From: a virus | Reading direction: 5' to 3' (one strand) | Length of the DNA: 41,232 nucleotides | Virus record (IMG/VR): IMGVR_UViG_3300009702_000006 | Span: 1 to 41,232 of that record | Part shown: in pieces, positions 5,887 to 21,721 of the stretch | Position numbering within the stretch: the stretch's first letter is position 1 | Layout of the letters: the number at the start of each line of letters is the position of its first letter | Notes under the pieces: generated by a model | Databases searched by the model: none | Told to the model about the DNA's origin: nothing | The model's input: the letters and a program-made list of their open reading frames with translations, nothing else | Position numbers and translations under genes: made by a program

Positions 5887-5888
5887 TC

Positions 5889-7222: not shown

Positions 7223-7223
7223 T

Positions 7224-8355: not shown

Positions 8356-8677
8356 AGCAATCTCCTAAATAGTTTGTTAATCCTATCCATCCATTCGTTG
8401 GATCAGTAAAAAGAGAATAAATATGTCCATTAATATTTAAACCCTTTATAGCAATCACTTGTGGCTCTTCAATTAAATCATACATTTTTAATAGCTCATC
8501 CCTATAAATTACATAACGTTTATCTATAGTTAGATTAATTGCTAAAAATCTATTCTTATTCAGAGTTCGTGTATGAATTAGAATCCGCGTACCATTAAGT
8601 TTATCGGTTCTAGTGCCATAATATTCAGGTTTAATTTCCCAGACTTGACCTAGCCTAATCTTCGGTATTGTCTCCAA
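8336..8677 (-). CDS. Hypothetical protein
   Basis: 113-aa ORF, tightly packed in the operon with overlapping ends. Confidence 0.55.
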   Translation of the reverse strand: METIPKIRLGQVWEIKPEYYGTRTDKLNGTRILIHTRTLNKNRFLAINLTIDKRYVIYRDELLKMYDLIEEPQVIAIKGLNINGHIYSLFTDPTNGWIGLTNYLGDCYATASI

Positions 8678-8991
8678 TTGTCATTCTCCTGAAATAAAAG
8701 TTCATAGTCTTTTTCGTCACGCAAGACATATACTTTTTGACCATATTTATTCATTTTAGCAAAGAAAATCTCTTGTGAATATCTGAGTTTTTCTTTTGGT
8801 GCTTTAGTCTCAATCCACCGCAAGCCATGCAAGATATGTAAGCAGAGTAAATCCGGCAAGCCAGATTGATATTTCCCACCATGTAATTTTTTGATCATCC
8901 ATCCTCGTGCCTCCATATATCTTCGTAAACGCAATGCACCTTTAGCTTCTGGGCCTGTACGAACAGTATTACGCGGACGTTTATAGTTCAT
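8650..8991 (-). CDS. VRR-NUC family nuclease
   Basis: 113 aa. SGLPDLLCL...RWIETKAPKEKL fits the VRR-NUC PD...ExK core. Confidence 0.6.
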   Translation of the reverse strand: MNYKRPRNTVRTGPEAKGALRLRRYMEARGWMIKKLHGGKYQSGLPDLLCLHILHGLRWIETKAPKEKLRYSQEIFFAKMNKYGQKVYVLRDEKDYELLFQENDNWRQYRRLG

Positions 8992-8994
8992 TGT

Positions 8995-9336
8995 TTATCT
9001 TTTTCGTGTTGGTTTAGGTCTTAGACTCCATTCATACTTAACGTCACTACTTAATTGTCGTAATTGTTTAACCTCTTTACTTGACGCTGACAGTAACTTA
9101 AGATTCTTCCATGTTGATTTATTGAAAATCTTCCAAGTCTTTTTCATAATCTTTAATCTATTGAGAAACGGACCATGAATAAACTTATATGCTTTCCTTA
9201 AATTCTCATAGCTACTAGTCATCTCCTCAGCCCAGGAGAGAAGTTTAATTTTATTCAGATTCGACTCCTCAATTAAATCCTCATAGATGGTAATCGTACG
9301 CATAATCTCAAATTCCATTTCGTCTTTACTGGCCAT
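8995..9336 (-). CDS. Hypothetical protein
   Basis: 113-aa ORF. Its start overlaps the stop of the upstream small ORF (TAATG). Confidence 0.55.
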   Translation of the reverse strand: MASKDEMEFEIMRTITIYEDLIEESNLNKIKLLSWAEEMTSSYENLRKAYKFIHGPFLNRLKIMKKTWKIFNKSTWKNLKLLSASSKEVKQLRQLSSDVKYEWSLRPKPTRKR

Positions 9337-9515
9337 TACATTTCCTCTCTACCAAAGCCAAGGTATTTTTCAAACAATTTAACTAATCTTTTTAACGTAT
9401 TTTGTGTAAGTTTTTCATTACTATTTAATAAGTTTTGTACCCATCGTTCTTCCTTTTCTTCTAAAGTTAAATCTAACAATCGTAAGCATAGTTCATCCGA
9501 ATCAGATTTTTCCAT
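9336..9515 (-). CDS. Small hypothetical protein (59 aa, below the ORF-track cutoff)
   Basis: Hand translation gives MEKSDSDELCLRLLDLTLEEKEERWVQNLLNSNEKLTQNTLKRLVKLFEKYLGFGREEM. It fills an otherwise empty gap and overlaps both neighbours at start and stop. Confidence 0.45.
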   Translation of the reverse strand: MEKSDSDELCLRLLDLTLEEKEERWVQNLLNSNEKLTQNTLKRLVKLFEKYLGFGREEM

Positions 9516-9885
9516 AGCCTACATCCAATACTTTTTTTATATTTGGTTTAGAATGACCTTGTTCTTTTAATATTTTACCATCCTTTCTTCTTAGTTTACC
9601 AGATTTTAACATATTATTCTCGTGAACTTCATCGAAAAAATACTCCAGGTCTATACCGAAAGCAATAGCTGCTCCATATGTTACATAGAGTAAATCACAC
9701 AACGCATCAATTACTTCAATAATATTATTTTGACGCAACGCATCCTCTAATTCACACACTTCTTCTTTAATTAATTTTAATCTTAGATCGATAATAGGCT
9801 GCTGCGTTATATCAATATCATCAGGAATTCTTTGTTCCATTTTTCGCATGAAATTAAGAACTAATTGCTGTGGGTAATGCATCAC
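9502..9885 (-). CDS. MazG-like nucleotide pyrophosphohydrolase
   Basis: 127 aa. LRLKLIKEEVCELEDAL...EVIDALCDLLYVTYGAA...DEVHENNMLK is the typical all-alpha MazG-like signature. Confidence 0.7.
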   Translation of the reverse strand: MMHYPQQLVLNFMRKMEQRIPDDIDITQQPIIDLRLKLIKEEVCELEDALRQNNIIEVIDALCDLLYVTYGAAIAFGIDLEYFFDEVHENNMLKSGKLRRKDGKILKEQGHSKPNIKKVLDVGYGKI

Positions 9886-12047
9886 TTCTTACTCCAATCT
9901 TCAAGGTTTGTTTTCCATTCCATTTTAATTAATGGAACCAACGGTTTATAAGCATCAACTGTTTGATTAACAATTGATTTTATTTTATCAGTTACTTCAG
10001 GAATATGCACACACATAATTTCATCATGGATGTTGAAAGGTTGTACAATCCATTTATGAATCCCTGATGGTTGTACATCCCATATTCGTCGCTGTACTTC
10101 CTTAGTAATTTCTGCTCCGGTTGATTGTATAACATGGTTAGCCGCTGCTCTCATATTACGAGCCTGTAATTGAAAGACTGTACTATAAAGAGCTGATTGT
10201 GTCGCACCTTTAATTGTTTGTTCACGATTGCGACGATAGATTTTTCCATATACATTAAAACTATCCGGAGGATGTTGAGCTAATTTAAAGAGTAATCTAA
10301 CGATGTTATTCTCCAACGTGAAATAACGTCTGAAGCCAAGAAGAGATTCAACAAAGTCATCAGGTTCATGCCAGATAATCTCTGTTCCCACTCCTTTAGG
10401 CTGACTAATGGAGCAAAACCTGTCAAATATACTTCGTCTAGCACTATCGATTCCCGGGTATTTTTCCATGAATTTTTTATAGTTTTCTTCCGCAGTGTCC
10501 TCAGAAATACCAGTAGACTCAGCAAGTTTTTTGGGTTGGGCTCCGTATAAGAGGGCAAAAGCAGCTGTCTTACTGGGGTGATAAAGATTTGTTTCTTTGT
10601 TTTTAGTGTCAATAATGTATTGATAGGGCAATTGATATAATGCCGATCCCAACATTGCATGAAATGATTTACCTGCTCGCAAATCAGACCGCAAATTGTC
10701 GTCTTTATAAGCTGCATCTGCTAATGTTACCTCAAAAGAGTCAAAGTCTCCACCACTTAATATATAACCTTTATCAGCTAGCGTGAATAGTTCACGAATT
10801 TCTTTGATTCTAGGAATACCTTGAGGATTTATACTACCACTTTTTCTCCCTGCTTTTACTTCTTCACTACTCCCACCAGACATACGACCAGACTTAGTTC
10901 CTATAATTTTAAAGTCTGGATTAAAGCGTCCTACTTCAAGAAGTTTATTAAGTAATTCTATTTCTTTAAGAGCACTCCTTATTTTAATTATTTGTTTCGC
11001 TCTTTGTCCTGTTTCAGTTTCCCATTTAGATAAAGCTTCTAAAGTTTTCTTACTAGTGTCAACAATTAGGGCTGATTCATCTTCACTAGCAACTTCTTTG
11101 AGCCACTGTCGAACCTGAATGTGAGAATTAGGGTTAATACCGCAGGCACTTTCACTCCTTTTTTCTTCCATTCGATTAATTGTTCTGCTTCTCGACAAAG
11201 TATACCCTCGCCATCTGCTACTTCCAACGCAGCCAGCGAGAATAGAGTCGGTGTCTCCGGCTGAGGGCTCTCCAAAGTGATGGTATAATCTTTGTAAGAA
11301 TATAACATCTTGTTCTGCATAGCTTCTGGCATGTTTATTCTCCTTCCAGAATTGTATATGTCGATGAATTACAGGTAACCAGTTTATATTATACGGATTA
11401 TATTCTGGTTCCTTTTCTGGCCAAAACGATTTAGGCACAGGAAATTCTATAGTGTTAACCTTTAAACATTCTGCTGCAAGAGCTTTCAATCCAGATGATG
11501 CTGCAAAGTGTAGTTTGATATTACAAAACTTAGGTTCATCTTCAATCAGTTCTTCCTGCCATTCATAGCCACCCGCTCTACGTTGAAAATATATATTTGG
11601 TAATCTAATTCGTTTAGTTAATTCTTTTGTTAGAATAGGGGCTAGGTCAGCTGGCACCTTTTTAATCACAATGTCATCACGATCCATCAATGTTTGCCAC
11701 GGCCCTTTGCGGGCGTGTAACATTAAATCTAAACATGATTTAGGTTTTAAACACCACTGAACTGGTTGAGTAATACTAATTTTAGCTAAGTCATAAGGCT
11801 TTGGCGGCTCATCTTTATTCTTGATCTGATATAAAAGATTATATAATTTATTAACATGGAACCAGTCAAAGCTTAGATTAAATGCACAAACTTCATTGTT
11901 CGTAAACATTTCTAGCAATGCCATTGTTTCTTTTATTGGTGAGTTAAACACTTCATGAACAATAACTTCACCATCATCTTCTGCATACTGAATAATTACA
12001 ATTGGACCTGTCAGTCCACAAGTTTCAGTATCAAAGAAGATCATCAT
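9882..12047 (-). CDS. Family A DNA polymerase with 3'-5' exonuclease domain (T7-like)
   Basis: 721 aa. ExoI FFDTETCGL at the N-terminus, motif A GGDFDSFEVTLAD, motif B KTAAFALLYGAQPKKLA, motif C HDEIMC. Confidence 0.9.
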   Translation of the reverse strand: MMIFFDTETCGLTGPIVIIQYAEDDGEVIVHEVFNSPIKETMALLEMFTNNEVCAFNLSFDWFHVNKLYNLLYQIKNKDEPPKPYDLAKISITQPVQWCLKPKSCLDLMLHARKGPWQTLMDRDDIVIKKVPADLAPILTKELTKRIRLPNIYFQRRAGGYEWQEELIEDEPKFCNIKLHFAASSGLKALAAECLKVNTIEFPVPKSFWPEKEPEYNPYNINWLPVIHRHIQFWKENKHARSYAEQDVIFLQRLYHHFGEPSAGDTDSILAGCVGSSRWRGYTLSRSRTINRMEEKRSESACGINPNSHIQVRQWLKEVASEDESALIVDTSKKTLEALSKWETETGQRAKQIIKIRSALKEIELLNKLLEVGRFNPDFKIIGTKSGRMSGGSSEEVKAGRKSGSINPQGIPRIKEIRELFTLADKGYILSGGDFDSFEVTLADAAYKDDNLRSDLRAGKSFHAMLGSALYQLPYQYIIDTKNKETNLYHPSKTAAFALLYGAQPKKLAESTGISEDTAEENYKKFMEKYPGIDSARRSIFDRFCSISQPKGVGTEIIWHEPDDFVESLLGFRRYFTLENNIVRLLFKLAQHPPDSFNVYGKIYRRNREQTIKGATQSALYSTVFQLQARNMRAAANHVIQSTGAEITKEVQRRIWDVQPSGIHKWIVQPFNIHDEIMCVHIPEVTDKIKSIVNQTVDAYKPLVPLIKMEWKTNLEDWSKK

Positions 12048-12207
12048 TTAACTCCGCTTCTATATCATCATCTATATCACATTCGTCCCTATCTTCTAAA
12101 CATTCAATACAATAACCATTGTCAGCTTCGTCTTTAGAGACTACATTACCACAACCTATACATTCAATATAATCATCTAATTCTTCAGCTCTTGGGTCTA
12201 TAGCCAT
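12031..12207 (-). CDS. Small zinc-ribbon protein with an acidic tail (58 aa, not in the ORF track)
   Basis: Hand translation gives MAIDPRAEELDDYIECIGCGNVVSKDEADNGYCIECLEDRDECDIDDDIEAELNDDLL. It has two CxxC pairs and overlaps both neighbours. Confidence 0.4.
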   Translation of the reverse strand: MAIDPRAEELDDYIECIGCGNVVSKDEADNGYCIECLEDRDECDIDDDIEAELNDDLL

Positions 12208-12524
12208 GTTAATGCCCTCACTAAATTACGGAATACTATCCATTGTCTTTGTATATCGGCAGACAATTCTTCAAATACAACCATTTCAGGATGTAACTTT
12301 TGAGTTCTAGAAAATACCAAACCCTTTGACCATCCTTGATCCTTCATCCATTGTATCCATTTAATATGTAATGATGCAGCATTAACATCACTTTCATGGA
12401 TAACAAAGTTTACACCTATCGGAACGAAATTAGGGTCAACAGGTAATGTTAAACCTGTTGTTCCTGCATAAGTTATTAAACAATCTTCAACTATTGCATT
12501 GATTTGTTGTTTTGATAAAGACAT
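12198..12524 (-). CDS. RyR-domain-like protein
   Basis: 108 aa. H..W.QWMKDQGWSKG......KLHPEMVVFEELS resembles the bacterial/phage RyR domain consensus (H..W....GW.yG....hP.lvpyeeLs). Confidence 0.45.
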   Translation of the reverse strand: MSLSKQQINAIVEDCLITYAGTTGLTLPVDPNFVPIGVNFVIHESDVNAASLHIKWIQWMKDQGWSKGLVFSRTQKLHPEMVVFEELSADIQRQWIVFRNLVRALTWL

Positions 12525-14182
12525 TTTTTAATCTCCTCTAGCGTTATGTTCTGTAACTCGATTCCTTTATCGAGTCTATCCTTAATATATAAATCAGTAG
12601 GTAGATTTATTAAGTCAATTATTCTTGTTGCTTTAGCTGTATCCATACCTGGACGATCTCTACGATCTAAAGATTGTATACGATGATCGACACTAAAGCT
12701 ATTAGAATAATAGACTAACGCAAGCGTTGATGATAATGTTAAACCATGAACACAGGCTGGATTAGCAATAATTACTACATTCGATTCTTCAGTATCATCA
12801 TTGAAATAATCTAAAACATCTTTATCACTCCAACCTTTGCCAGTAATGGTAACAGTATACCATTTCTTTCCTACACAAAAGTCACGCAACATTGCAATTG
12901 ACGCATGAAAGGCTGCGTAAATAACTAACCGGCCCGGCCCGCCGTTTTCTTTGTGGTAGAAGTCGAGGAGACTTTCGACCGCTTTCGTTTTAGGTCTGAT
13001 TTGTAAAGCTTGATAAGCGTTAGTTGTTGATCCATTATCTGAGATAATACCCCCAGTTCGTGTCTGATCGTCGCTAACTGTTGAGTCTGTATGTTTATTA
13101 TCCGTTCTAGATTTGTACAGAAATCCATCACTTAACTCCCTTAATTTTTGTAAACTTTGTACACCACTTTCGGATGTACTTATTAAAAATTCACCCAATC
13201 TATAAAGCTCCTGTCTTTCACTATCGCTAAGATAGTCTTGACAGTTTATTGTTTCGAAGATTTTATCTGGTAGGTCTAAACAATCTTTCTTTTTCTTTAC
13301 TAGTACAAGAGGTGCCAGACGTTTACCTAACTTTTTAACTTCATCTTTTTTCCATGACTCAACTTCCTTATGCTCACCATAACCGTGATCCACAGTAACG
13401 ATATTAGCGTATCTGTTTCTAAATTTAATTGCGGTACTCTCTCTAATAAAACCAGGTTGTAAACATTCAACCTGATGCCACCAATCGATAGGATTCTTTG
13501 GAGAAGGAGCACCAGATAACATAAGTATATATCCGCTTCTAGCACGAACCAGCCTGCACAATTCTGACGCCACTTGGCTACGCTTGGCAGCATGGTTTTT
13601 AATTTTAATTGATTCATCAAATACAACAACATGAGGAATGAAACTATCATCCAGTGCATCCATATATTTATAGAGTGATTCATAAGTAGTCTCTACAACA
13701 AAAGTAATATTAGAATTCCATTTCTTTAATTGATGTTTCCATTCCTGCTGGGCCCCAAACGGAGCAACTAACCAAAAGTTATATAACTTTTGTGTCATTA
13801 AATATTCTAGAGCTTCAATTGCAGTTAGGGTTTTCCCCAGACCCATCTCAAAGGCAAGGAGAACGCAACGCCTATTAAGAAAGAACTTAAGACCGTCACG
13901 TTGGTGAGAAAATAGATTCCTGCTCCCAGAATAATTAATGTCACTATCAATTCGTAGCCTTTCTCCTTGAAGATATCGAAACGCATATTGATTCCTTTCA
14001 CAATTGTCAACAATCCAACATTTATTCTCTGGCTGCCATCGGGCACCCTTCATTGCTTTGATTTCATCCTTTAATGCTACATCGTAGGGAGAATATATTT
14101 TTAATTTTTTATCATCATCGGTAGGGATAACATCTATATTAAAATTATAAAGATATTTACCCTTACTGATTTTTACTTTCAT
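12491..14182 (-). CDS. SNF2-family helicase
   Basis: Motif I EMGLGKTL, motif II DESIKIKN, LSGAPSPKN, and a C-terminal GLTL...SFSVDHRIQSLDRRDRPG. I moved the start from the GTG at 14197 to the ATG at 14182. That ATG overlaps the upstream stop as ATGA and has a ggtgggag SD. Confidence 0.8.
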   Translation of the reverse strand: MKVKISKGKYLYNFNIDVIPTDDDKKLKIYSPYDVALKDEIKAMKGARWQPENKCWIVDNCERNQYAFRYLQGERLRIDSDINYSGSRNLFSHQRDGLKFFLNRRCVLLAFEMGLGKTLTAIEALEYLMTQKLYNFWLVAPFGAQQEWKHQLKKWNSNITFVVETTYESLYKYMDALDDSFIPHVVVFDESIKIKNHAAKRSQVASELCRLVRARSGYILMLSGAPSPKNPIDWWHQVECLQPGFIRESTAIKFRNRYANIVTVDHGYGEHKEVESWKKDEVKKLGKRLAPLVLVKKKKDCLDLPDKIFETINCQDYLSDSERQELYRLGEFLISTSESGVQSLQKLRELSDGFLYKSRTDNKHTDSTVSDDQTRTGGIISDNGSTTNAYQALQIRPKTKAVESLLDFYHKENGGPGRLVIYAAFHASIAMLRDFCVGKKWYTVTITGKGWSDKDVLDYFNDDTEESNVVIIANPACVHGLTLSSTLALVYYSNSFSVDHRIQSLDRRDRPGMDTAKATRIIDLINLPTDLYIKDRLDKGIELQNITLEEIKKCLYQNNKSMQ

Positions 14183-14520
14183 CGTGGAATCTCCCACCTA
14201 TTTTTACGTTTTAATGTTTGTATCCGTATTGTTATTGTTGAAGTGCTAGTACGTAATAGAGCAGCAATTATAGGATGAGATAGTGGATGTGTTCCAGGGG
14301 GTATAGGATCAGTAGCTGGAATTTCTAACCAGTTACCTCTAGGGGTAATAATAATACACTGACGCAACCATCTTATAAGATCGTCGCGTAACATTATATA
14401 TTCTGTATGTCTAGAGACAGTAAATAATTGTAGGTAGGATAGACCACCTAACATTTCTTCAACCTTATCGTTGAAGTGATTCTCCAATAATCTAAACTTT
14501 TCAAAAGTTAATGTACGCAT
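14179..14520 (-). CDS. Hypothetical protein (start trimmed to MRTLTFEKF)
   Basis: The first 15 codons of the listed ORF 14179-14565 run through the tRNA. The internal ATG has SD gaaaggagaaaaaacaATG. Confidence 0.55.
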   Translation of the reverse strand: MRTLTFEKFRLLENHFNDKVEEMLGGLSYLQLFTVSRHTEYIMLRDDLIRWLRQCIIITPRGNWLEIPATDPIPPGTHPLSHPIIAALLRTSTSTITIRIQTLKRKNRWEIPR

Positions 14521-14540
14521 TGTTTTTTCTCCTTTCTTAC

Positions 14541-14614
14541 TACCCCCGATGGGGATCGAACCCATACTTTAGGGATTTTAAGTCCCTTACCTCTGCCAAT
14601 TGGGTTACGGGGGC
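14541..14614 (-). tRNA. tRNA with anticodon UAA (Leu by anticodon) but a class-I, short-variable-loop shape
   Basis: Sense sequence: GCCCCCG TA ACCC AATTGGCAG AGGT A AGGGA CTTAAAA TCCCT AAAGT ATGGG TTCGATC CCCAT CGGGGGT A. It has a 7-bp acceptor stem (G1-U72), a GG-containing D-loop, a canonical TTCGATC T-loop, U33, A73 and no encoded CCA. Confidence 0.85.
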
Positions 14615-15334
14615 TTATACGTGGCGTTTCCACCCTTCTTTATATCTATCGTGTGCTTGCGTTAAATATAAATGGTGAATGTCAAAGCCAAGAGTTCGCC
14701 GCCCTTGCCGTTTAGCTGCAATATACATACTGCCTGAGCCAGTAAATAAATCTAAAACAATATCATTAGGACGACTAAATGCACGGACAAAGGTAGTACA
14801 TAATTCGATAGGCTGACAGCTTCTACCCTTAGCATGACGTAAATAATCACGCTCTCTACTGTTTCCAGGTACTCGCGGATATTGTAAAACAGTAGGTGGG
14901 GTACGCCCTCGGTGATCAGCCCGTAAATCTTTACTTAGCATTCGTTGGGAGGGGATAGCAACTGACTGCCAGTTAAAGAAGGGCGTACCCCGTTTATATA
15001 CTAGAATTGTTTGATGAGATTCTACAAATTTCTTTTTTGTGTATGTTCCGAAATTGTAGAACCAAATAAGATCCTGAACGAAAGATATATACGAACGATA
15101 CTTTCGCATACATGTTTCGATATCATATCTTATTTTAGATTGTGTATTTATTAACAGATAACTATCATCAGCCATACACCGTGTCGCATGATAGATCCAA
15201 TCCTGCGTAAACTTCCTATACGATGTAAGTATCTCGGTTGAATCATAGGCATCTGTAAACGGCGGATCAGCATAAACTAATTGAGCACAATTAGCCTTTA
15301 CCGGTAACGTCCTTGTATCCGCTGTAATTAGCAC
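14615..15334 (-). CDS. DNA N6-adenine/N4-cytosine methyltransferase (beta class)
   Basis: 239 aa. LVYADPPF (motif IV) precedes VLDLFTGSGS (motif I). GTG start. The stop codon abuts tRNA base 1. Confidence 0.8.
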   Translation of the reverse strand: MLITADTRTLPVKANCAQLVYADPPFTDAYDSTEILTSYRKFTQDWIYHATRCMADDSYLLINTQSKIRYDIETCMRKYRSYISFVQDLIWFYNFGTYTKKKFVESHQTILVYKRGTPFFNWQSVAIPSQRMLSKDLRADHRGRTPPTVLQYPRVPGNSRERDYLRHAKGRSCQPIELCTTFVRAFSRPNDIVLDLFTGSGSMYIAAKRQGRRTLGFDIHHLYLTQAHDRYKEGWKRHV

Positions 15335-15342
15335 TACACTAT

Positions 15343-16068
15343 CTATCTATCAGTTTCTGTATCTGAACTTTCTGCTTCTTCTACTTCCGCTTCCGCTTTA
15401 ATCGGTGCAATAAACATTGCCATTGCATCATTATAAGCACTAGCAGCAGGGAAATACTCTGCTAATGGTTCAATCGGAAGAACTCTAGGTACCCATGCTT
15501 TACGCCCATTTTTATAATCTACCATATCTGCATACAATTCAAAGCAATTTGTATATGGTAAATCTTTAGTATTTTCTGGGCGATTGTCAATCTCTACCAT
15601 ATGATCAAAGATATCGAACGATATATATCGTGCCGTCTTTGATCCTGGAAAAAATACAGCAAAGACAAATGTGTTGGGGATATATACTAGAAACTCCCCG
15701 GCTGCCCACTGAGCAAAGGTACCCGAAGGGTGTTTAATCTTTGCTAATGTTACAATCTCTTTAAAGACAGGAGAATCTTCATTGAAAGATTCCATTGTCT
15801 TTTGACCATTCTCTACAAACATAGCATGGGGTCTAAAGCCCATAATACAAATGACAACTTTCCTTTTTAGGTTTTTATCCTGTACTGTCAGGAAATAATC
15901 CCCAGGGGCGTTGCCTTCAGTATTACATTCTTCAGAAACTCCCTGCAATAACTTAAGAGCAGGCAGAAAGTTAGCTGCTGTAGATTCTTTACGATATTGT
16001 TTTGCTAGTGAGGGTGAAGGAACTAAACCAGTTCCGATATTGGCAATTGTTATTTGTTTTTCGTCCAT
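15343..16068 (-). CDS. Hypothetical protein with an acidic C-terminal tail (possible gp2.5-type ssDNA-binding protein)
   Basis: Start trimmed to MDEKQITI (SD aaaggaaataacaATG). C-terminus EAEVEEAESSDTETDR. It lies inside the replication module. The SSB call is inference only. Confidence 0.5.
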   Translation of the reverse strand: MDEKQITIANIGTGLVPSPSLAKQYRKESTAANFLPALKLLQGVSEECNTEGNAPGDYFLTVQDKNLKRKVVICIMGFRPHAMFVENGQKTMESFNEDSPVFKEIVTLAKIKHPSGTFAQWAAGEFLVYIPNTFVFAVFFPGSKTARYISFDIFDHMVEIDNRPENTKDLPYTNCFELYADMVDYKNGRKAWVPRVLPIEPLAEYFPAASAYNDAMAMFIAPIKAEAEVEEAESSDTETDR

Positions 16069-16164
16069 TGTTATTTCCTTTTCTTTTTTAATTAGAGATA
16101 GTGGGGGCACCCTAAGGGTTACTTGGGTGCCCCACACTATCGTGCTAGGCTTGCCTAGCTGCTG

Positions 16165-17154
16165 TTAAGCGAGGCTCTCGGCTGCGGATTCTGTTTTTTG
16201 TCTCTTTAATTCTGCTTCTAAACGCTCTACTTCTTCCTTTTGCTTTTGCAATTTCTTCATTGCGGATTCAAGAGAACGCTGTTCCTTCTTTGCTTCTCTA
16301 GCGAGTTCCTTTTGCTTCAGGGTTTCGGGGTCACACGATAGCATCTTTTCTGCCATCTGCTTTTCACCAGTAAGAATTAAATAATCCTCAGTTTCAGGAT
16401 CAGTATTCTTTAATGTATTGGTGACATGATCCAGCATTGCTTCTGCTTCTCGCAGACCAACAAACTTTTTAGTTACAACAAAGTCAACTTTACTTTTGCC
16501 CTCACGTAATGCCTTATTAAAAGCTTTACGCTGCTGGGTAATATAACTAATCGCTGCATCAGCTGGCATACCCTCTTTTTCAACTTCATTCGCAACCTGT
16601 TCTTGATATTGAATAGGGACACGAGCTAGGGTTAAGCCTACACTCGGTGTAATTTGTCCTTTATCAAGTTTAGCCTGCAATGATTTTGTTAATTTCCCAT
16701 AGCCCATAATCTTGGAGATATCTGTTGGTGTCTTTCCAAAATCTTCCGCAATCTCGCTTTGAGTTTTGGTGGGGTGGGCCAACATATATCGTTTAAAATG
16801 TTCATACTGTTCCCTCGGTTTAGTAGGAACATTTGTATTTAACATATATTGAGATTGTTGAGCTTCTTCCGGTGTCAATCGTTCCTTGACAGTACAAGGA
16901 ATCTCTTTCAAACCTAATTCTTTCGCAATCATTGTGCGGTGTAAACCATCACACAAAATAAACTCATCAGGGATAATTTCATCAGTCTCAGGATTCCGTG
17001 CAGGGGTAACAAATACTGGACGATTAGGATGAAACCCTTTTGATTTTATTAATCTTTTAATGTGTAAAGTGTGAGGGTCATCCGGGTGATATTCCCGAAT
17101 ATTATTTAATTCACTGGCATTAATCTTTTTCGGATCAATCATTACAATTTGCAT
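16165..17154 (-). CDS. ParB/Srx-domain protein with HTH and a Lys/Glu-rich coiled-coil tail
   Basis: 329 aa. ILCDGLHRTMIAKELG (DGxHR ParB N-terminal motif) and an HTH-like KTQSEIAEDFGKTPTDISKIMGYG. Confidence 0.7.
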   Translation of the reverse strand: MQIVMIDPKKINASELNNIREYHPDDPHTLHIKRLIKSKGFHPNRPVFVTPARNPETDEIIPDEFILCDGLHRTMIAKELGLKEIPCTVKERLTPEEAQQSQYMLNTNVPTKPREQYEHFKRYMLAHPTKTQSEIAEDFGKTPTDISKIMGYGKLTKSLQAKLDKGQITPSVGLTLARVPIQYQEQVANEVEKEGMPADAAISYITQQRKAFNKALREGKSKVDFVVTKKFVGLREAEAMLDHVTNTLKNTDPETEDYLILTGEKQMAEKMLSCDPETLKQKELAREAKKEQRSLESAMKKLQKQKEEVERLEAELKRQKTESAAESLA

Positions 17155-17224
17155 CTTACTTTCCTTTCTTTTTTATTTTCTAGATGCGGGCGGTACGATA
17201 GGGGTCTACGTGCCCCTATACTAT

Positions 17225-17253
17225 ATTATACCATAAAAATAAAACTATGTCAA
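17225..17253 (-). promoter_or_regulatory. Consensus sigma70-type promoter facing the ParB-like gene
   Basis: The minus strand reads TTGACA tagttttatttttatgg TATAAT: perfect -35, 17-nt spacer, perfect -10. It lies in the 106-nt gap upstream of 17154 and is followed by hairpin ATAGGGG-n8-CCCCTAT (17200-17221). Confidence 0.6.
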
Positions 17254-17260
17254 GTGCTAT

Positions 17261-17539
17261 TTAGGACGGATCATAGTATTTATGTTGTATACGGGAATCG
17301 TTAATTTTATTTATAAGGATTCTTAGACTTGCAATATTGGATAATGACATACTGCCACAAGTTTTGCAGTATTTAAAATTATTTAATAGTTCATCAGTTA
17401 CCATTTTTTGTGTTTCTGTCGGAAGGTCTTTTTCTTCTAACTGTTTTAGATCATCTTTTAGGTTTCGTAATATCTGAAATTGGGCCAACAGTTTTTGTCT
17501 ATGCTTTAAATAAATTGGATTAGTTGTCAGCGTTTTCAT
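17261..17539 (-). CDS. Hypothetical protein
   Basis: 92-aa ORF with ATG start, AAGGAG upstream, and one CxxC (CKTC). Confidence 0.5.
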   Translation of the reverse strand: MKTLTTNPIYLKHRQKLLAQFQILRNLKDDLKQLEEKDLPTETQKMVTDELLNNFKYCKTCGSMSLSNIASLRILINKINDSRIQHKYYDPS

Positions 17540-17756
17540 GGTACATAAACTCCTTAAAATGCGCGAAAGTGTCTTTTTTATTTAAAACGAATGTAGCATA
17601 GGCTACAATCGGGAAGTTTGATGGCCCAAACAATTTTGGGTAGGTACAATGGGTCAGTCCATCGGGGTAAATGTAGTGCGAATAATCCGAACGTAAGTCC
17701 AGTAAACACAAGGGGTTACGTTCAAAAACATAGGCCGTTAGTACTATTCTATATGT

Positions 17757-17788
17757 TAGATATAGAAATAGAAATAGAAATAGAAATA
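17757..17788. repeat. Hexanucleotide microsatellite (TAGAAA)n
   Basis: tagata followed by four perfect tagaaa units (17763-17786), in a poorly coding gap. Confidence 0.9.
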
Positions 17789-17892
17789 ATAAGAGAATAA
17801 GGGGCGAAATATTGGCCTATTTCTTGTTTTTCTGGTTTTTGTGTGTCAATGGACATATTGACCGTATCAAATGAAGATTGATTTTTGTAATT

Positions 17893-18375
17893 CTAGAAAA
17901 TAGCTCCAGACAAATTGGCTCCATACAAATTGGCTCCAGACAAATTAGCTTCAGACAGATTAGCTATAATTAAACTGGCTTCAGTTAAGTCTGCTCTAGA
18001 TAAATCTGCCTTAGTCAAATTGGCCCCAGACAAATTGGCTTGATATAAGTTAGTTGAAATTAGAATGGCCCCAAATAAATAGGTTCCACATAAATCTACT
18101 CTAGATAAATCTGCTCTGAATAAATCTGCTTCGGATAAATCTACTCTAAATAAATCTGCTCCGGATAAATCAGCTCCTGACAAATTGGCTCCGGATAAAT
18201 TAGCTAAATATAAGTCAGTTGAAATTAGAATGGCTCCGGACAAATTGGCTCCGGACAAATTGGCTAGATATAAATTGGCTCCTGACAAATCAGCTCCTGA
18301 CAAATTGGCTCCGGACAAATCTGCTCCGGATAAATTGTAATATCGAAGATCGAGATTGTGAAGGTCGAGTGCCAT
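17893..18375 (-). CDS. Pentapeptide-repeat protein (160 aa)
   Basis: Almost the whole protein is A(D/N)LSG-type pentapeptides (ADLSGANLSGADLSG...). GGAG-containing SD upstream (gaaggagaaaccaATG). Confidence 0.85.
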   Translation of the reverse strand: MALDLHNLDLRYYNLSGADLSGANLSGADLSGANLYLANLSGANLSGAILISTDLYLANLSGANLSGADLSGADLFRVDLSEADLFRADLSRVDLCGTYLFGAILISTNLYQANLSGANLTKADLSRADLTEASLIIANLSEANLSGANLYGANLSGAIF

Positions 18376-18387
18376 TGGTTTCTCCTT

Positions 18388-18720
18388 CTAGAAAATGGTA
18401 TCGTCAAAATCTTCGTCTGTTAAATAGGCTCCGGTTAAATCAGCTCCAGATAAATTAGTTCCAGTTAAATTGGCTCCAGACAAATAGGCTCCAGATAAAT
18501 TAGCTTCAGTTAAATCTGCTAAGTATAAATCAGTTGAGATTAGAATAGCTTCAGGTAAATCAGCTCCAGTTAAATCAGCTCCAGTTAAATCAGCTTCAGA
18601 TAAATCAGTTCTAAATAAATTGGCTCCAGACAAATCGGTTCCGGATAAATTGGCTCCCGACAAATCTGCTCCAGACAAATTGTAATGTCGAAGATCGAGA
18701 TTGTGAAGGTCGAGTGCCAT
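18388..18720 (-). CDS. Pentapeptide-repeat protein (110 aa), tandem paralog of 17893-18375
   Basis: Same MALDLHNLDLR-YNLSGADLSGANLSG N-terminus. The 5' end plus SD region is 68/72 nt identical to the neighbour (18316-18387 vs 18661-18732). Confidence 0.85.
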   Translation of the reverse strand: MALDLHNLDLRHYNLSGADLSGANLSGTDLSGANLFRTDLSEADLTGADLTGADLPEAILISTDLYLADLTEANLSGAYLSGANLTGTNLSGADLTGAYLTDEDFDDTIF

Positions 18721-18733
18721 TTGTTTCTCCTTT

Positions 18734-18964
18734 TTATTTTACCAAAGAGTTCAATTCTTTCTTGATCCTTCTTGCAGTTTCACCCCTATAGGATTGTGCG
18801 TTGGCAAGGAAATAAATAATAATTCCTTTTGCATCGTCCAACCCATAATGGTCATCGACACTATGCAGGGACGCCATGGCGTCTAGATAGGGTTTGGCAC
18901 CAAAATAAACATTCTTCCAATCGTTGCGAATTTCCTGTGCGATTTTGTAGATAGGTCGAGTCAT
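18734..18964 (-). CDS. Hypothetical 76-aa protein, paralog A of 20410-20640
   Basis: Start trimmed to MTRPIYKIAQEIR (SD aaaaggagacctagaATG). 43/76 residues identical to paralog B by hand alignment. Confidence 0.6.
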   Translation of the reverse strand: MTRPIYKIAQEIRNDWKNVYFGAKPYLDAMASLHSVDDHYGLDDAKGIIIYFLANAQSYRGETARRIKKELNSLVK

Positions 18965-18996
18965 TCTAGGTCTCCTTTTTGGATGGTTCATGGAAC

Positions 18997-19017
18997 AAAT
19001 CTGTAGAGAACAGATTT
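18997..19017. terminator. AT-rich hairpin with flanking T-runs (weak, possibly bidirectional terminator)
   Basis: aaatctgt agaga acagattt (8-bp stem), followed by atttgg on + and gtt on -. It lies between the 62-aa gene and paralog A. Confidence 0.3.
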
Positions 19018-19056
19018 ATTTGGTATGGTCGTAAGTCTAATCCTTTTAGACTGGTC

Positions 19057-19245
19057 TTATTCCAAACCACCTTTCCTGTGAGGGTGAGAGATAACACAAA
19101 TAACACCATTTTGTATAAAAATGGTGTTGTTACGTTTTGTTTTTGACCGTGTTTTGTGTCCGAGAAAACGCATATAGCGTTGTCCGGATTTTTCGAGTTC
19201 TAGTTCACGCCGCAGCAGTTTACGTTCGTTTTTTTCGTGTTTCAT
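19057..19245 (-). CDS. Small basic hypothetical protein (62 aa)
   Basis: The ATG overlaps the stop of the upstream 57-aa gene as ATGA (19242-19245). Lys/Arg-rich. Confidence 0.5.
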   Translation of the reverse strand: MKHEKNERKLLRRELELEKSGQRYMRFLGHKTRSKTKRNNTIFIQNGVICVISHPHRKGGLE

Positions 19246-19415
19246 ACTTTGATAACTTTCCGTTTTGTTGGGGGTGTTGGGTCGATATATGTTGTCCGTG
19301 TGCGACCGCGATAATATATAATCACGGGTTTGGTGGGTTTGGTGCCAGCTAGTGATAAGAACCAGTCAATAATGGCTCTATTCTCCGACGGTTCGTTAGA
19401 AACGTAAGTTTCCAT
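19242..19415 (-). CDS. Small hypothetical protein (57 aa; start trimmed to METYVSNEP)
   Basis: SD aaaaaggagaaaaataATG. The longer listed ORF (to 19565) reads through the 12-bp repeat of the neighbouring gene in another frame. Confidence 0.5.
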   Translation of the reverse strand: METYVSNEPSENRAIIDWFLSLAGTKPTKPVIIYYRGRTRTTYIDPTPPTKRKVIKV

Positions 19416-19442
19416 TATTTTTCTCCTTTTTGAAATAGGAAA

Positions 19443-19466
19443 CGTATATCTTGCGAACGGCATAGG
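19443..19466. repeat. Left arm of a perfect 24-bp inverted repeat
   Basis: cgtatatcttgcgaacggcatagg is the exact reverse complement of 20014-20037. Confidence 0.95.
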
Positions 19467-19482
19467 GGTTGTGGGTTGTTGG

Positions 19483-19980
19483 TTAGTTTTCGACAGGTTC
19501 GTCGACAGGTTCGTCGACAGGTTCGTTGACAGGTTCGTGGTTGAGGGTGCCCAAAAGGTAGACACGGGCTTGTTCCCTCAATTCCTTGTTGGGTTCCTTG
19601 CATGCCAGTTTGAAAGCTTTACGAACCGCTTTCACGTTTGGGGTCATGCCGAGAAGGTGCTTTGTTGCCCATGGGATGTTTTTCCCAGTGATGCTATAGT
19701 CAATTTCACAATCGTTGGGGACAGTGAATCGACTCAGCTTGCTGTCTAGCAAGTTTCGGGCGGCATCTTCGAGGTCTGACGCGGCAGTGTACAACCAGTC
19801 CGCGAACCCGTTGGGATTGTTGGATCCCTTTGTGTAGATGGACAACGCTTTGTCAAGGGCAGGACCAATTGGACATTCACTATTGTGATTGTCCAAACTG
19901 GCGATTAGGTCGCCTAGTGCGACCATAGCTTCGGCTTGTGTTGCCGTTCCGGTGTTTAGATTCTTTGCGAGATTGAACAT
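19483..19980 (-). CDS. Hypothetical 165-aa protein with a C-terminal (EPVD/N)4 acidic repeat
   Basis: ATG start with aaaggaaataggtgaccctATG upstream. It ends HEPVNEPVDEPVDEPVEN. The inverted repeat brackets it exactly. Confidence 0.6.
   Translation of the reverse strand: MFNLAKNLNTGTATQAEAMVALGDLIASLDNHNSECPIGPALDKALSIYTKGSNNPNGFADWLYTAASDLEDAARNLLDSKLSRFTVPNDCEIDYSITGKNIPWATKHLLGMTPNVKAVRKAFKLACKEPNKELREQARVYLLGTLNHEPVNEPVDEPVDEPVEN
19491..19538. repeat. 12-bp tandem repeat, 4 copies (cgacaggttcgt)
   Basis: Three perfect copies and one with a single mismatch. In frame, encoding the EPVD repeats. Confidence 0.9.
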
Positions 19981-20013
19981 AGGGTCACCTATTTCCTTTC
20001 GGTTAAGGGTAGT

Positions 20014-20037
20014 CCTATGCCGTTCGCAAGATATACG
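20014..20037. repeat. Right arm of the perfect 24-bp inverted repeat
   Basis: cctatgccgttcgcaagatatacg is the reverse complement of 19443-19466. Confidence 0.95.
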
Positions 20038-20387
20038 CGAGAAATTGTAGGGCTATGTAGGCATATCGGTAACTTGTGCTATGATGCGTTTTTTCGGCCT
20101 TTGCAGACCTAAGTCTATCGCACCATAGCGGCAGTTTCGCCCGTAACGTATGTACTACCCATACGCTACTGTGCAGTTGGCCAGACCGTACGTTTATACC
20201 GTACTCGGTTCGCCCGTAGGCTCGCGACTCGGGGGTAGAGAGTATCTGCACACTCTCTATTACTACCGCTACAATCCGGTAGCATGGCCTTATACCGATA
20301 TTCAGTTGTTAACGACTTCGTGGGCGTCTACCACCTAGGCAGACCCGCCGGCGACCGCGAGGATAAACTCGCCGTCGCCGGCGTTTT
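20038..20387 (+). ncRNA. Candidate structured plus-strand RNA, antisense to the early arm (hypothesis)
   Basis: About 370 nt with no SD-preceded ORF on either strand and high GC. Hairpins at 20078-20129, 20147-20165, 20236-20259 and 20263-20282. A possible extended -10 (TGcTATGAT, 20077-20085). It ends in tandem + strand terminators. Confidence 0.3.
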
Positions 20388-20407
20388 CCACGGCGTCGCC
20401 GTGGTTT
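20347..20407 (+). terminator. Tandem GC-rich hairpins each followed by a T-run on the + strand
   Basis: GCCGGCGAC-c-GCGAG-gataaa-CTCGC-c-GTCGCCGGC then gTTTT. This is followed by CCACGGC-gtc-GCCGTGG then TTT. On the minus strand neither hairpin is followed by a T-run. Confidence 0.55.
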
Positions 20408-20409
20408 CG

Positions 20410-20640
20410 TCATCCGAGCATCCCCTTCAACTCGGCCTTGATGCGGCGAGCGTCAGGACCTCTCCAAGTTTGAGCGTTGGACAGGAAGTAGAGTACGATA
20501 CTCCGTGCATCGTCAAGCCCGTACTTGTCCTTGACCGAGGACACACACCCCATAGCCGATAGGTAGGGTTTGGCGAAGGGACTAACGCGTCCCCACTTCT
20601 CGCGGACTTCATCCGCTATCACGTACAAGGGTCTAGTCAT
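20410..20640 (-). CDS. Hypothetical 76-aa protein, paralog B of 18734-18964 (high GC)
   Basis: Start trimmed to MTRPLYVIADEVR (SD ggagagttgcaATG). Same length as paralog A and collinear with it. Confidence 0.6.
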   Translation of the reverse strand: MTRPLYVIADEVREKWGRVSPFAKPYLSAMGCVSSVKDKYGLDDARSIVLYFLSNAQTWRGPDARRIKAELKGMLG

Positions 20641-20784
20641 TGCAACTCTCCAAAAAAACCACAATATCCGGTAGGCCTATTGCAAGTTGCGTGCCAGACA
20701 GTTATACTGTAGTTATTATCTTTATACTTTATATTTCCTGTAGTAGTGAACAATATCCGTTCATACTGTAAATCAGGGGGCGGC

Positions 20785-20896
20785 TGTCTGCCAAAATGGC
20801 AGACACATTATCGGACCCTGCCATAATGACAGTAAAACGTCATTTATAGGCTCTAATCGACGCTTTGTGACATTGTGAAATCGGCCATAATGACAG
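20785..20896. promoter_or_regulatory. Three copies of the TGCCAWAATGRCAG-like motif; the first is a perfect 8-bp-arm palindrome
   Basis: tgtctgcc aaaat ggcagaca at 20785-20805. tgccataatgacag at 20819-20832. ggccataatgacag at 20883-20896, the last inside hairpin tcggcc-n9-ggccga. Confidence 0.5.
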
Positions 20897-21048
20897 GCCG
20901 ATACGGTTTAAGTAGTACTTGATTCTTTTTCAGTAATAGTGTATACTTATAAAGTAATACTGAAACCGTGGCCGAATTGTCGAGAAGTCTATCCAGATAC
21001 CCTATCTTCACAATTTTGCGCCAAATACCTAGTTTCACAGGGTCGAAA

Positions 21049-21226
21049 TAAATTATAACTTTAATCCAGTATCGCTTTAATAAAGTATTACTTTAACCGG
21101 CTGCCGCCCCGCGACCTACAGTATCACTTTAATAAAGTGATACTTTAATAAAGTATAACTTTAAGCGGCGGGGCATAAAGTGATACTTGAATACGGAATC
21201 GCGACTCGCGTTAAAGTGGCACTTTA
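21049..21226. promoter_or_regulatory. Phased array of eight TAAAGT-N3-ACTTTA palindromes (operator, iteron, centromere or pac-type sites)
   Basis: Perfect copies at 21081, 21133, 21149 and 21212. One-mismatch copies at 21049, 21117 and 21176. A degenerate copy at 21065. They form two blocks of three units on an exact 16-bp register, each unit separated by a single A, plus two single units. GC-rich spacers carry CGCGAC three times (21110, 21200, 21230). Confidence 0.7.
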
Positions 21227-21364
21227 AGCCGCGACACTTGTTGCGTTTTCTTCCTTCTCCTCCTCAGTGTCGTTCGGTGGGCAATGGGGTAGGGTGTTCG
21301 ATAGGATTCCGAAAGGTGCTGAAGTATATATACCAGTATATCGACGTTGAGTCGTTAAAATATT

Positions 21365-21721
21365 ATGTCAACTTTACGTGATAACGAAATAGTAACAGCG
21401 AATAGTTTTGATACCGAAGCTGATTTTAATATGGTGAATCACCTATTAAAAAAGCCGAGATATAAAATACCAGAGCATCTTCGTGATAAAATAATAACTA
21501 GAGCTGGTCGTATTATTGAACAAACAGAAGATGACAAAACAGCACTAGCAGCAGCGAATACAGTTATTGCAATGGATAAATTAAATATACAATTAGTACA
21601 AATTGCAATGCCAAAGAAAGTTGAACGGAGAGATATAGAAAAAATGCCACAGGAAGAATTATTAGAAGCTCTGAGGGAAGTTAGAAAAAAACTACCGGAG
21701 GTATTACCTTATGAGGCGTGA
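21365..21721 (+). CDS. Putative small terminase subunit (by position)
   Basis: 118 aa. It is the first gene of the plus arm, two genes upstream of TerL. No motif recognised. Confidence 0.35.
   Translation: MSTLRDNEIVTANSFDTEADFNMVNHLLKKPRYKIPEHLRDKIITRAGRIIEQTEDDKTALAAANTVIAMDKLNIQLVQIAMPKKVERRDIEKMPQEELLEALREVRKKLPEVLPYEA

Follow-up and report, generated by a model that had tools for sequence, protein, structure and literature searches.

The viral DNA examined here, IMG/VR record IMGVR_UViG_3300009702_000006, has 41,232 nucleotides and was analysed over its whole length (positions 1 to 41,232), which is referred to as the window. The window is a phage genome of ~41 kb composed of two divergent arms. 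The minus-strand arm (3274-20640) includes genes for a DUF5906 primase/helicase-like protein, DNA polymerase A, an SNF2 helicase, a methyltransferase and a ParB-like protein as well as a tRNA-Leu gene, and the plus-strand arm, from 21365, includes the terminase, portal and tail genes. The segment of interest lies between 17893 and 21364, at the promoter-proximal end of the minus-strand arm beside a divergent control region. An earlier sequence-only reading of the window had placed it there, and gene orientation, a sigma-70-like site on the minus strand at 20794-20765 and seven palindromes in the control region agree with that placement. Close to the start of the arm is an orphan gene for a protein of 165 aa that is enclosed by an inverted repeat and preceded by a structured leader and a small gene for an arginine-rich microprotein. 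Further small genes, among them two for pentapeptide-repeat proteins, make up the remainder of the segment (Table 1).

The open reading frame (ORF) for the 165-aa protein is bracketed by two arms that are complementary at 24 of 24 nt and contain no G.U pairs, a perfect repeat (19443-19466 / 20014-20037) that the sequence-only reading had already noticed. This is the only long, high-identity inverted repeat spanning a gene in the 41 kb window. The 5' arm ends upstream of the ATG and leaves the Shine-Dalgarno sequence (SD) free. The duplex formed by the flanks of the 165-aa gene has a z-score of -8.0, and among 20 further genes or gene spans in the minus arm no value was stronger than -3.5 and no bracketing helix was convincing. 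The next-best duplex (z = -3.5) flanks the low-GC copy of the 76-aa gene and is probably a product of pentapeptide-repeat sequence. When the sense RNA from 20060 to 19420 was folded, the closing helix was present in both the minimum free energy (MFE) structure and the centroid structure, with a z-score of -11. The 24-mer arm is present in a single copy in the window and was absent from IMG/VR. No target-site duplication was found at the flanks of the bracketed segment, and the orientation of the segment is identical in three assemblies.

Terminase scans of metagenomes detected relatives at 60-63% identity, and contigs L025, L026 and L027 were obtained by exact look-up of three homologs of the 165-aa protein. 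L011 and L012, which judged from the contig names derive from Hainich groundwater, are close to each other, and the known lineages number four or five. A long inverted repeat encloses the orphan gene in all four lineages in which it could be looked for, with 24-26 bp in three and the inner 11 nt visible in L025, where the contig ends inside the 3' arm. The L027 contig ends 9 nt past the stop codon, so that its 3' arm lies outside the visible sequence. The 24-nt core of the L026 helix has two mismatches, both of them U.G on the sense strand, and the sole mismatch in the 26-nt helix of L012 is likewise a sense-strand G.U. Arm sequences are unrelated between lineages and the pairing is nevertheless kept in four of them (for L025, in the inner part only), which is the pattern of covariation. 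The geometry is also constant, as the helix closes 19-33 nt before the ATG, keeping the SD within the loop, and 11-20 nt past the stop codon. For three imperfect helices the sense and antisense duplex energies are -49.1/-42.3, -48.0/-44.4 and -44.7/-40.1 kcal/mol, favouring the sense strand in all three, and four of the five mismatches in three helices, which are small numbers, are sense-strand G.U. A comparison of L011 with L012 shows changes at 1 of 112 nt in the arms, at 24 of 319 nt in the leader and at 22 of 114 nt in the micro-ORF region.

Other double-stranded elements accompany these helices. The unrelated neighbouring gene in L012, a DUF6948 gene, has its own 30-nt bracket (1500-1529 / 1860-1889) located 8 nt from the first, and the Gly/Tyr-rich cassettes of L012 are separated by perfect hairpins of 42-45 nt. 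A perfect 26-bp helix with a loop of 105 nt (212-237 / 343-368) is present in the early leader of L015, a relative with a 60% identical terminase in which the contig ends ~210 nt further on. The L012 brackets, the hairpins and the L015 helix therefore suggest that long double-stranded RNA elements are a habit of the early transcripts in this lineage.

Two further features of the arms were observed. The leaders of L026 (1-236) and L027 (3293-3525) are 91.5% identical up to 25 nt into the ORF, past which the nucleotide sequences cannot be aligned; each ORF encodes a distant homolog of the 165-aa protein, and within the 5' arm the two contigs have different inner halves. Judged from this alignment, the junction is a mosaic breakpoint at a cassette boundary. 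The inverted 13-mer pair TGCGTTTTYTCGG is found in the window as an outer pair (19160-19172 / 20085-20097) located outside the 24-bp helix and in the arms of L026 (172-183 / 757-768). The same T/C difference between arms occurs in both, and the polarity relative to the gene is opposite in the two.

Table 1. Positions of features in the window and of the helix arms in related contigs.
Sequence	Feature	Position	Strand	Remarks
Window	Pentapeptide-repeat protein, 160 aa	17893..18375	-	PF00805, E 1.7e-57; strong SD; GC 38.5%
Window	Pentapeptide-repeat protein, 110 aa, tandem paralog	18388..18720	-	PF00805, E 3.1e-45
Window	76-aa protein, low-GC copy	18734..18964	-	phrog_13953, E 1.8e-26; SD AAGGAG before ATG at 18964
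Window	62-aa orphan ORF	19057..19245	-	ATGA overlap with 57-aa ORF; coding status uncertain
Window	14-bp hairpin	19099..19131	both	Terminator-like on both strands; inside 62-aa ORF; local fold z -3 to -5
Window	57-aa orphan ORF	19242..19415	-	Strong SD AAGGAG; coding status uncertain
Window	3' (trailer) helix arm	19443..19466	-	100% complementary to 20014-20037; begins 16 nt past stop
Window	165-aa orphan protein, bracketed gene	19483..19980	-	GC 50%; GC3 (third codon positions) 0.57
Window	5' (leader) helix arm	20014..20037	-	Ends 33 nt before ATG; SD left free
Window	Structured leader RNA	20038..20308	-	Between micro-ORF and bracketed gene; ~270 nt, multi-hairpin
Window	34-aa arginine-rich microprotein gene MTKPRRRRGKRRRRRVYPRGRRRVCLGGRRPRSR	20309..20413	-	ATGA-coupled to upstream GC-rich 76-aa gene
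Window	Two G+C-rich hairpins, 16 bp and 7 bp	20346-20383, 20387-20403		Inside micro-ORF; T-runs on plus-strand side
Window	76-aa protein, GC-rich copy	20410..20640	-	First gene of arm; phrog_13953, E 9.2e-23
Window	Divergent control region	20641..21364		~0.7 kb between arms; promoter-like sites on both strands
L026	Helix arms	157-191 / 749-783		Around ORF 211-729; 35 nt at 83%; protein 40% identical
L012	Helix arms (same in L011)	1898-1923 / 2398-2423		Around 141-aa ORF; 26 nt at 96%
L025	Helix arms	138-148 / 674-684		Inner 11 nt at 91%; contig ends inside 3' arm; protein 50% identical

The micro-ORF that precedes the leader was missed by automated gene calling in two of the three assemblies of the phage and was called in the third, L002 (Logan). 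Counterparts were recognised by position, 270-320 nt upstream of the 5' arm in three lineages, and encode 30 aa in L027 and 31 aa in L012/L011. Arginine and lysine make up 42-56% of the 30-34-aa microproteins and 35% of a longer, 37-aa ORF in L012. ORFs as basic as these arose 0, 0 and 1 times per 500 shuffles of the three leaders. Between L011 and L012, 17 of the 96 nt in the micro-ORF differ, 10 of them at third codon positions, and the 6 resulting amino acid changes are all conservative (K/R, F/Y and A/V, with an ATG/GTG start), whereas random substitutions would be expected to cause ~10 amino acid changes and to introduce a stop codon half the time (P = 0.004). Because of the rarity in shuffled leaders and this substitution pattern, the micro-ORF is judged to be a real gene under purifying selection. 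The microprotein matched no family and has no sequence similarity to lambda N. It may bind RNA, and it can be speculated that it is an arginine-rich-motif RNA-binding peptide that acts as an N-like antiterminator or modulates the helix.

The stretch 20038-20409 folds with a z-score of -7.9 on the minus strand (-162.6 kcal/mol) and of -4.0 on the plus strand (-144.7 kcal/mol), and structure is likewise present in the equivalent leaders of L027 and L012 (z -3.3 to -4.4). Here the sequence-only reading had described a structured stretch poor in ORFs with plus-strand terminators. The structure is confirmed, as are hairpins followed by T-runs on the plus side, which may be plus-strand terminators, but the stretch is not empty, since it includes the 34-aa gene. 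Searches of Rfam 15 over the whole window were empty at gathering scores, and a cut-off of E <= 5 in 18900-21400 added nothing credible. The leaders cannot be aligned between lineages and no k-mer of at least 7 nt is common to the three. Two words are shared pairwise at similar offsets, CCUACGGGYGAAC by the window and L012 and CGAGCCUACG by the window and L027, neither being significant alone. The first of these is located at 20200-20215 (sense) in the window and at ~2640-2650 in L012, ~200 nt downstream of the micro-ORF start, and could fold into a stem of GCC/GGC (or ACC/GGU) capped by a UACG tetraloop. A retron, a type III toxin-antitoxin system, a group I/II intron and an IS200/605 element were considered as identities of the structured stretch and rejected, as no reverse transcriptase, repeat array, intron model or Y1/TnpB was found.

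In the relatives a GC-rich module occupies the same promoter-proximal position and consists of a basic micro-ORF, ~270-320 nt of structured RNA and a homologous orphan gene for 141-172 aa. The G+C content of the micro-ORF is 55-56%, of the leader 47-51% and of the homologous gene 46-48%, compared with 30-41% for the backbones of these genomes. In L027 the homolog of the 165-aa protein is the first long gene of the arm that diverges from the terminase arm, the latter including a homolog of the 118-aa protein of the window, and only a 30-aa basic micro-ORF lies ahead of it, a layout that matches the window. A protein of 141 aa is encoded by the first long ORF in the early arm of L012/L011. The sequence-only reading had put the G+C content of the whole block far above the backbone, which holds for 19443-20640 (50-64%, GC3 0.40-0.66, backbone 36%) but not for the rest, where the pentapeptide-repeat genes, the low-GC 76-aa gene and the 57/62-aa pair are at 38-44%, near the backbone value. 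Since the promoter-proximal segment is GC-rich in all these lineages, the elevation is considered a conserved property of the module and not a mark of recent import. The proposal of a foreign composition is thus contradicted for the module by relatives that carry it with the same position and GC elevation, an outcome which that reading had itself said would make the block ordinary. The GC-rich copy of the 76-aa gene is alone in being absent, with no equivalent at its position in L012/L011 and L027.

The 165-aa protein is known from very few sequences. Exhaustive HMMER searches of 1.84 billion representatives found only three homologs (P0122, P0123 and P0124, with 50, 40 and 30% identity), a profile search added nothing to these three, and a word-indexed search returned only the self match. 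No match was found in Pfam, PHROGs, NCBIfam, PADLOC or PDB, and scans of IMG/VR and GTDB genomes were empty. The C-terminal tail is acidic, (EPVD/N)4, and is encoded by four copies of a 12-nt tandem repeat (GACAGGTTCGTC, plus strand) at 19490-19537; the homologs end in similar acidic, proline-rich tails. The 141-aa protein of L012/L011 is probably a remote homolog, as hhalign aligned it with the 165-aa protein over 107 colinear columns (probability 87.6%, E 3.5e-6), though BLASTP made no link between them (E 6.5). Modelling, which the sequence-only reading had suggested as a check, was of use for one of the families in the segment: the AlphaFold2 (AF2) model of the 76-aa family consists of four helices at pLDDT 95, with no match in PDB (best E 0.88) and with BFVD matches that are all uncharacterised viral proteins, but the model of the 165-aa protein reached a pLDDT of 48 and was not usable.

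As had been recognised from the sequence, two of the genes downstream of the module encode pentapeptide-repeat proteins. They score 190.9 and 151.7 bits against PF00805, the family of tandem A(D/N)LXX pentapeptides, for which the gathering cut-off is 20.2, and share ~72% nucleotide identity over 315 nt. The best matches among natural proteins in PDB are from Nostoc and Cyanothece, with Qnr and MfpA weaker, and on this basis both are ordinary members of the family. The two diverged 76-aa paralogs were also correctly identified as such, being 57% identical and both members of phrog_13953, which they match over the full length. The low-GC copy is 73% identical to an outside homolog (P0060) and the GC-rich copy 71% identical to outside homologs, and because each has a closer relative elsewhere they are not recent duplicates. 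The GC-rich copy shares 60-64% identity with proteins of Mycobacterium phages (Pukovnik gp85 and others) and of phage DSL-LC05, and 38-58% with homologs in Gordonia phages. The family, which has 629 homologs and 17 invariant columns across 30 sequences, is found in Mycobacterium and Gordonia phages, the freshwater phage DSL-LC05 and many metagenomic phages, where its genes are typically among small genes in early or right-arm regions. It is a widespread family of unknown function. The products of the segment had been called mostly unrecognisable, and this is true in that most are without known function, but not of the 76-aa proteins, which belong to a family of >600 members. The ATGA overlap reported for the 57/62-aa ORFs is present (19242-19245), and no homologs of either ORF were found in Pfam, PHROGs or NCBIfam, nor of the 62-aa ORF in GenBank phages. 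PADLOC, whose models cover defence systems and not anti-defence proteins, matched no protein of the segment, and searches of Pfam, NCBIfam and PDB, made without a dedicated anti-defence library, gave no informative defence or counter-defence match.

A comparison of the segment between relatives, as had been recommended, gave a divided answer, with the module shared and the accessory genes replaced. Downstream of the module the window and L012 differ completely: the window carries the 57/62-aa pair, a 76-aa gene and the two pentapeptide-repeat genes, and L012 has the DUF6948 gene and an array of Gly/Tyr-rich small genes. This array (L012 1-1510, L011 1-1140) encodes GYGNG-type repeats and takes the place of the tandem pentapeptide-repeat genes of the window, and each gene in it is preceded by a perfect palindrome of 42-45 nt (AAATATAAGCTAACATTTAA-N4-TTAAATGTTAGCTTATATTT) and a conserved SD leader. 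In the window, a (GAAATA)n microsatellite at 17757-17790 separates the pentapeptide-repeat genes from a 92-aa gene.

The control region contains seven copies of the palindrome TAAAGTNNNACTTTA at 21049-21226, compared with 0.35 expected by chance, which are probably operator or regulator sites. Related words are present in the control regions of L013 (162-177) and L011 (2154-2185). The promoter-like word CTGCCAT(A/T)(A/T)TG(A/G)CA occurs in the window in both orientations (20786-20843 and 20885-20897), with one copy located within the palindrome tgtctgccaaaatggcagaca, and three times on the early strand of L015 (~430-540); these words are likely the -35 regions of divergent promoters. In the more distant relatives L003 (236-820) and L028 (1421-1945), a plus-strand gene for 174-194 aa (MLIVVACQRSGT...) lies directly upstream of the gene for the 118-aa homolog, and the equivalent position in the window is the control region. 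A search for relatives by means of the 118-aa neighbouring gene gave only short contigs without an early arm.

From its sequence the phage is judged to be a tailed phage that was previously undescribed. The terminase is <25% identical to anything among GenBank phages, where no close relative was found, and the sole match in a nucleotide search of these phages was the GC-rich 76-aa gene. A terminase search of GTDB genomes for a host or prophage was empty. Two other assemblies hold the same phage at 99.97% identity with the same arrangement, which is therefore not an artefact of assembly. The ORFs scanned in the window include neither a phage-own RNA polymerase nor a recombinase, transposase, integrase or invertase, and a tRNA/tmRNA scan detected only the tRNA-Leu at 14541-14614. 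Elsewhere in the window, a 25-nt inverted repeat in the structural arm (31384-31408 / 31487-31511; 92% complementary, with 78 nt between the arms) is located near the start of a 106-aa ORF at 31444, and a second patch of elevated G+C content (~45%), with overlapping ORFs on both strands around a 274-aa gene (6121-6945), covers 6000-7000.

The interpretation below is drawn entirely from sequence analysis of four or five lineages. Comparison of these shows the anatomy of the module and its conservation, the covariation and constant geometry of the helix and the coding constraint on the micro-ORF, together with a modest preference for the sense strand. From these we infer action at the level of RNA, involvement of RNase III and binding of RNA by the peptide. 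In the reading that we favour, to which we assign an even chance, the region is the start of an early operon in which a conserved leader module is followed by variable accessory genes and the 165-aa cistron is looped out by an RNA helix, with RNase III as the most probable agent. It would form the first 3.5 kb of the minus-strand early operon of a phage that depends on the host polymerase. The first layer (19443-20413) would be a lineage-conserved, GC-rich leader module composed of the microprotein gene, ~270 nt of RNA and the 165-aa gene, and the whole cistron, including SD, ORF and stop codon, would be looped out of the sense transcript by the 24-bp leader/trailer helix. This helix would be a stalk of the leader-trailer type that serves RNase III processing or stabilisation. 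Cleavage by host RNase III would excise the 165-aa cistron from the polycistronic early RNA with its 5' and 3' ends still paired, setting its stability and translation independently of its neighbours, and the basic microprotein would bind the same leader RNA. The second layer would consist of small accessory early genes (the pairs of phrog_13953 and pentapeptide-repeat genes and the 57/62-aa pair) that are exchanged between relatives, and there is no sign that these have a joint function as one system.

A near-perfect duplex of 24-30 bp should be cut in a host that possesses RNase III. The leader-trailer helices of rRNA are cut by this enzyme and require at least 17 bp for function (PMC11404451). 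Helix lengths of 24-30 bp are consistent with what RNase III and leader-trailer pairing require, and the uninterrupted 24/24 bp of the window exceeds the ~17-20 bp at least that such a duplex should have. Several considerations weigh against the looped-out cistron as an RNase III substrate. The role of the enzyme is deduced from helix length and precedent, and its presence in the host is assumed. A perfect 24/24 helix without G.U pairs is also expected if an inverted repeat is homogenised at the level of DNA, the sense-strand preference comes from three helices with five mismatches, and in one palindrome of L012 the sense strand has an A.C mismatch. The lineages are few, and of these L011 and L012 are close, L025 shows the inner helix only and L027 is cut before the 3' arm. 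Homology of the L012 141-aa protein is only probable (BLASTP E 6.5; hhalign 87.6%), and in the window just one gene is bracketed.

A more elaborate form of the reading, in which micro-ORF, leader and helix are a single RNA-processing device peculiar to this phage group and the microprotein gates RNase III excision, leaving the ends of the mRNA paired or ligated into a circle, is considered improbable. If true, it would give the first early gene its own timing and stability and insulate it within the operon, in an rRNA-style maturation of a phage protein-coding message. Somewhat less doubtful is lambda-N-like processive antitermination, which we still regard as unlikely and which is compatible with the looped-out cistron. 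The microprotein would bind hairpins of the nascent leader, host RNA polymerase (RNAP) would read through terminators of the early arm, and the helix would be secondary, like the RNase III site of the lambda N leader. In three lineages a gene for a conserved basic peptide does stand first or second in the early operon, with ~270-320 nt of hairpin-rich RNA after it, terminator-like hairpins are present in the early arm, and the scanned ORFs include no polymerase of the phage itself. The L027 leader also contains a 7-bp stem with a GAAAA pentaloop (GAACGCG-GAAAA-UGCGUUC), which we take to resemble lambda boxB. However, the peptide is 30-34 aa long, compared with ~107 aa for N, leaving no room for NusA- and RNAP-binding regions, and it matches no protein family. 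No GNRA-like pentaloop hairpin is evident in the window leader, no boxA was identified, and the three leaders lack a common word of 7 nt or more. The same stretch (20040-20400) might instead encode a small RNA of ~110-300 nt on the plus strand, running antisense to the early transcript and terminating at the two hairpins, a proposal given very little weight. Promoter-like sites are present on the plus strand at 20058-20085 (extended TG) and 20247-20275, the T-runs follow the hairpins at 20346-20383 and 20387-20403 on that strand only, and the plus strand does fold with a z-score of -4.0. Yet the promoter matches are just 9/12, the minus strand folds far better (z -7.9; -162.6 against -144.7 kcal/mol), Rfam gave no match, and the conserved micro-ORF of the minus strand, within which the hairpins fall, has counterparts in L027 and L012 that are devoid of such terminators.

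An origin of the repeats at the level of DNA is equally hard to favour, and we consider it highly improbable. In this case the 595-bp segment 19443-20037 would be either an ultra-small mobile unit of the MPME or MITE kind, bounded by terminal inverted repeats, or an invertible, integron-like or other recombination cassette, and the repeats would be recombination sites instead of RNA structure. The perfection of the 24-bp repeat without G.U pairs would be accounted for, the L025 and L027 contigs break at or near the arms, the 91.5% identical leaders of L026 and L027 ahead of diverged genes indicate mosaic exchange near the 5' arm, and one 13-mer pair is found on either side of the gene both in the window, as the outer pair at 19160/20085, and in L026. 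Against this, the flanks show no target-site duplication, the window has a single copy of the 24-mer and IMG/VR none, the scanned ORFs include no transposase, integrase or invertase, and the 165-aa protein has no transposase domain. The gene has the same position in all relatives with completely different arms, unlike the site of a cognate recombinase, an unrelated L012 neighbour has its own bracket, mismatches favour pairing on the sense strand, and the orientation is the same in three assemblies. The sequence-only reading had offered yet another explanation, a horizontally acquired island with an undescribed counter-defence or host-takeover system, which is doubtful. The promoter-proximal early position, the unknown function of nearly all products and the location of phrog_13953 members among small genes in the early or right-arm parts of the Pukovnik, DSL-LC05 and metagenomic phage genomes are in keeping with it, and outside homologs are more similar to the GC-rich 76-aa copy than is its paralog in the same genome. 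Qnr and MfpA are pentapeptide-repeat DNA mimics that protect gyrase, and by analogy a phage copy could inhibit a DNA-binding host enzyme. But the GC-rich part is conserved in place and composition in relatives, the accessory genes are not syntenic between them, no PADLOC model was matched, and only neighbourhood links the genes functionally. A single counter-defence or takeover system is at odds with downstream genes that differ completely between relatives, and the island is not supported by anything positive beyond position and novelty. Individual genes may still be putative host-takeover or anti-defence factors.

The noteworthy feature of this locus appears, on sequence evidence, to be narrower than an island, namely an rRNA-style leader-trailer helix around a phage early gene together with an arginine-rich microprotein and a structured leader. 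A foreign counter-defence island cannot be deduced merely from a GC-rich, orphan-filled block next to a promoter. Should the helix act in RNA, it would be a clear natural case of a protein-coding cistron matured like rRNA and kept despite full turnover of the arm sequences, and phages that depend on the host polymerase would have an added mechanism to separate and time their early messages. It would also provide a compact rule, independent of sequence, for the insulation of one gene within an operon, with any pair of 24-30-bp arms placed ~20-30 nt before the start codon and ~15 nt after the stop codon. This reading predicts that the 3' arm of L027 (ENA ERZ23486771 scaffold_25830) will be close in sequence to TCAGTGACACTGGAAAAACGCAC and lie 11-20 nt past the stop codon of the 155-aa gene, and that the missing arm sequence of L025 will pair with GTAAAGTGTGACTTGCAGGGTG.

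Comparison with known systems places the individual elements as follows. The pentapeptide-repeat genes and the 76-aa genes are clear members by sequence of the pentapeptide-repeat family (Qnr, MfpA, cyanobacterial Rfr/Np275) and of phrog_13953 (Pukovnik gp85), and phage pentapeptide-repeat proteins of this size, like phrog_13953, have no known function. The ultra-small mobile elements of mycobacteriophages called MPMEs, reportedly described by Sampson et al. in 2009, resemble the bracketed gene in being segments of ~0.4-0.6 kb in a phage genome with terminal inverted repeats and one small ORF. They occur as near-identical copies at different sites and in different genomes with 11-bp imperfect repeats, whereas the gene here is syntenic and single-copy, with 30-50% identity between homologs and lineage-specific arms. 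The promoter-early stem-loop (PeSL) cassettes, which Arbiol et al. are said to have reported in 2010 from hyperplastic regions of T4-type phages, are similar in that small early genes without known function in a variable region are individually flanked by stem-loops and shuffled between relatives, and the Gly/Tyr-rich array of L012 looks PeSL-like. PeSLs are copies of one promoter-bearing motif, unlike the arms here, which are unique to each gene and lineage and pair across the gene.

With lambda N/boxB the locus shares an arginine-rich peptide at the start of the early operon, a hairpin-rich leader and reliance on host RNA polymerase. It differs in a peptide of 30-34 aa without a counterpart of the NusA- and RNAP-binding regions and with a sequence unlike that of N, and the leaders yielded no boxA and no conserved boxB. 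The RNase III sites R0.3-R1.3 of T7 and those of the lambda N-leader and sib are double-stranded elements in polycistronic early RNA made by the host polymerase, where they separate or regulate early cistrons and affect mRNA stability and translation. Those sites are local intergenic hairpins, of which the T7 type, at 42-45 nt, is present in L012, but the arms of the bracketing helix are ~550 nt apart and enclose a gene. The architecture also resembles that of the leader-trailer helices of bacterial rRNA operons, upstream of which the leader carries boxB/boxA/boxC (PMC11404451; PMC10250234). In both, flanking segments form a long helix that loops out a complete functional RNA within a longer co-transcript, and pairing is conserved as sequence diverges, with a length above ~17-20 bp needed. 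The helices described here, known from sequence, are near-perfect and without the bulges typical of rRNA, and what they enclose is one cistron of ~0.5 kb, protein-coding and part of the early operon of a phage.

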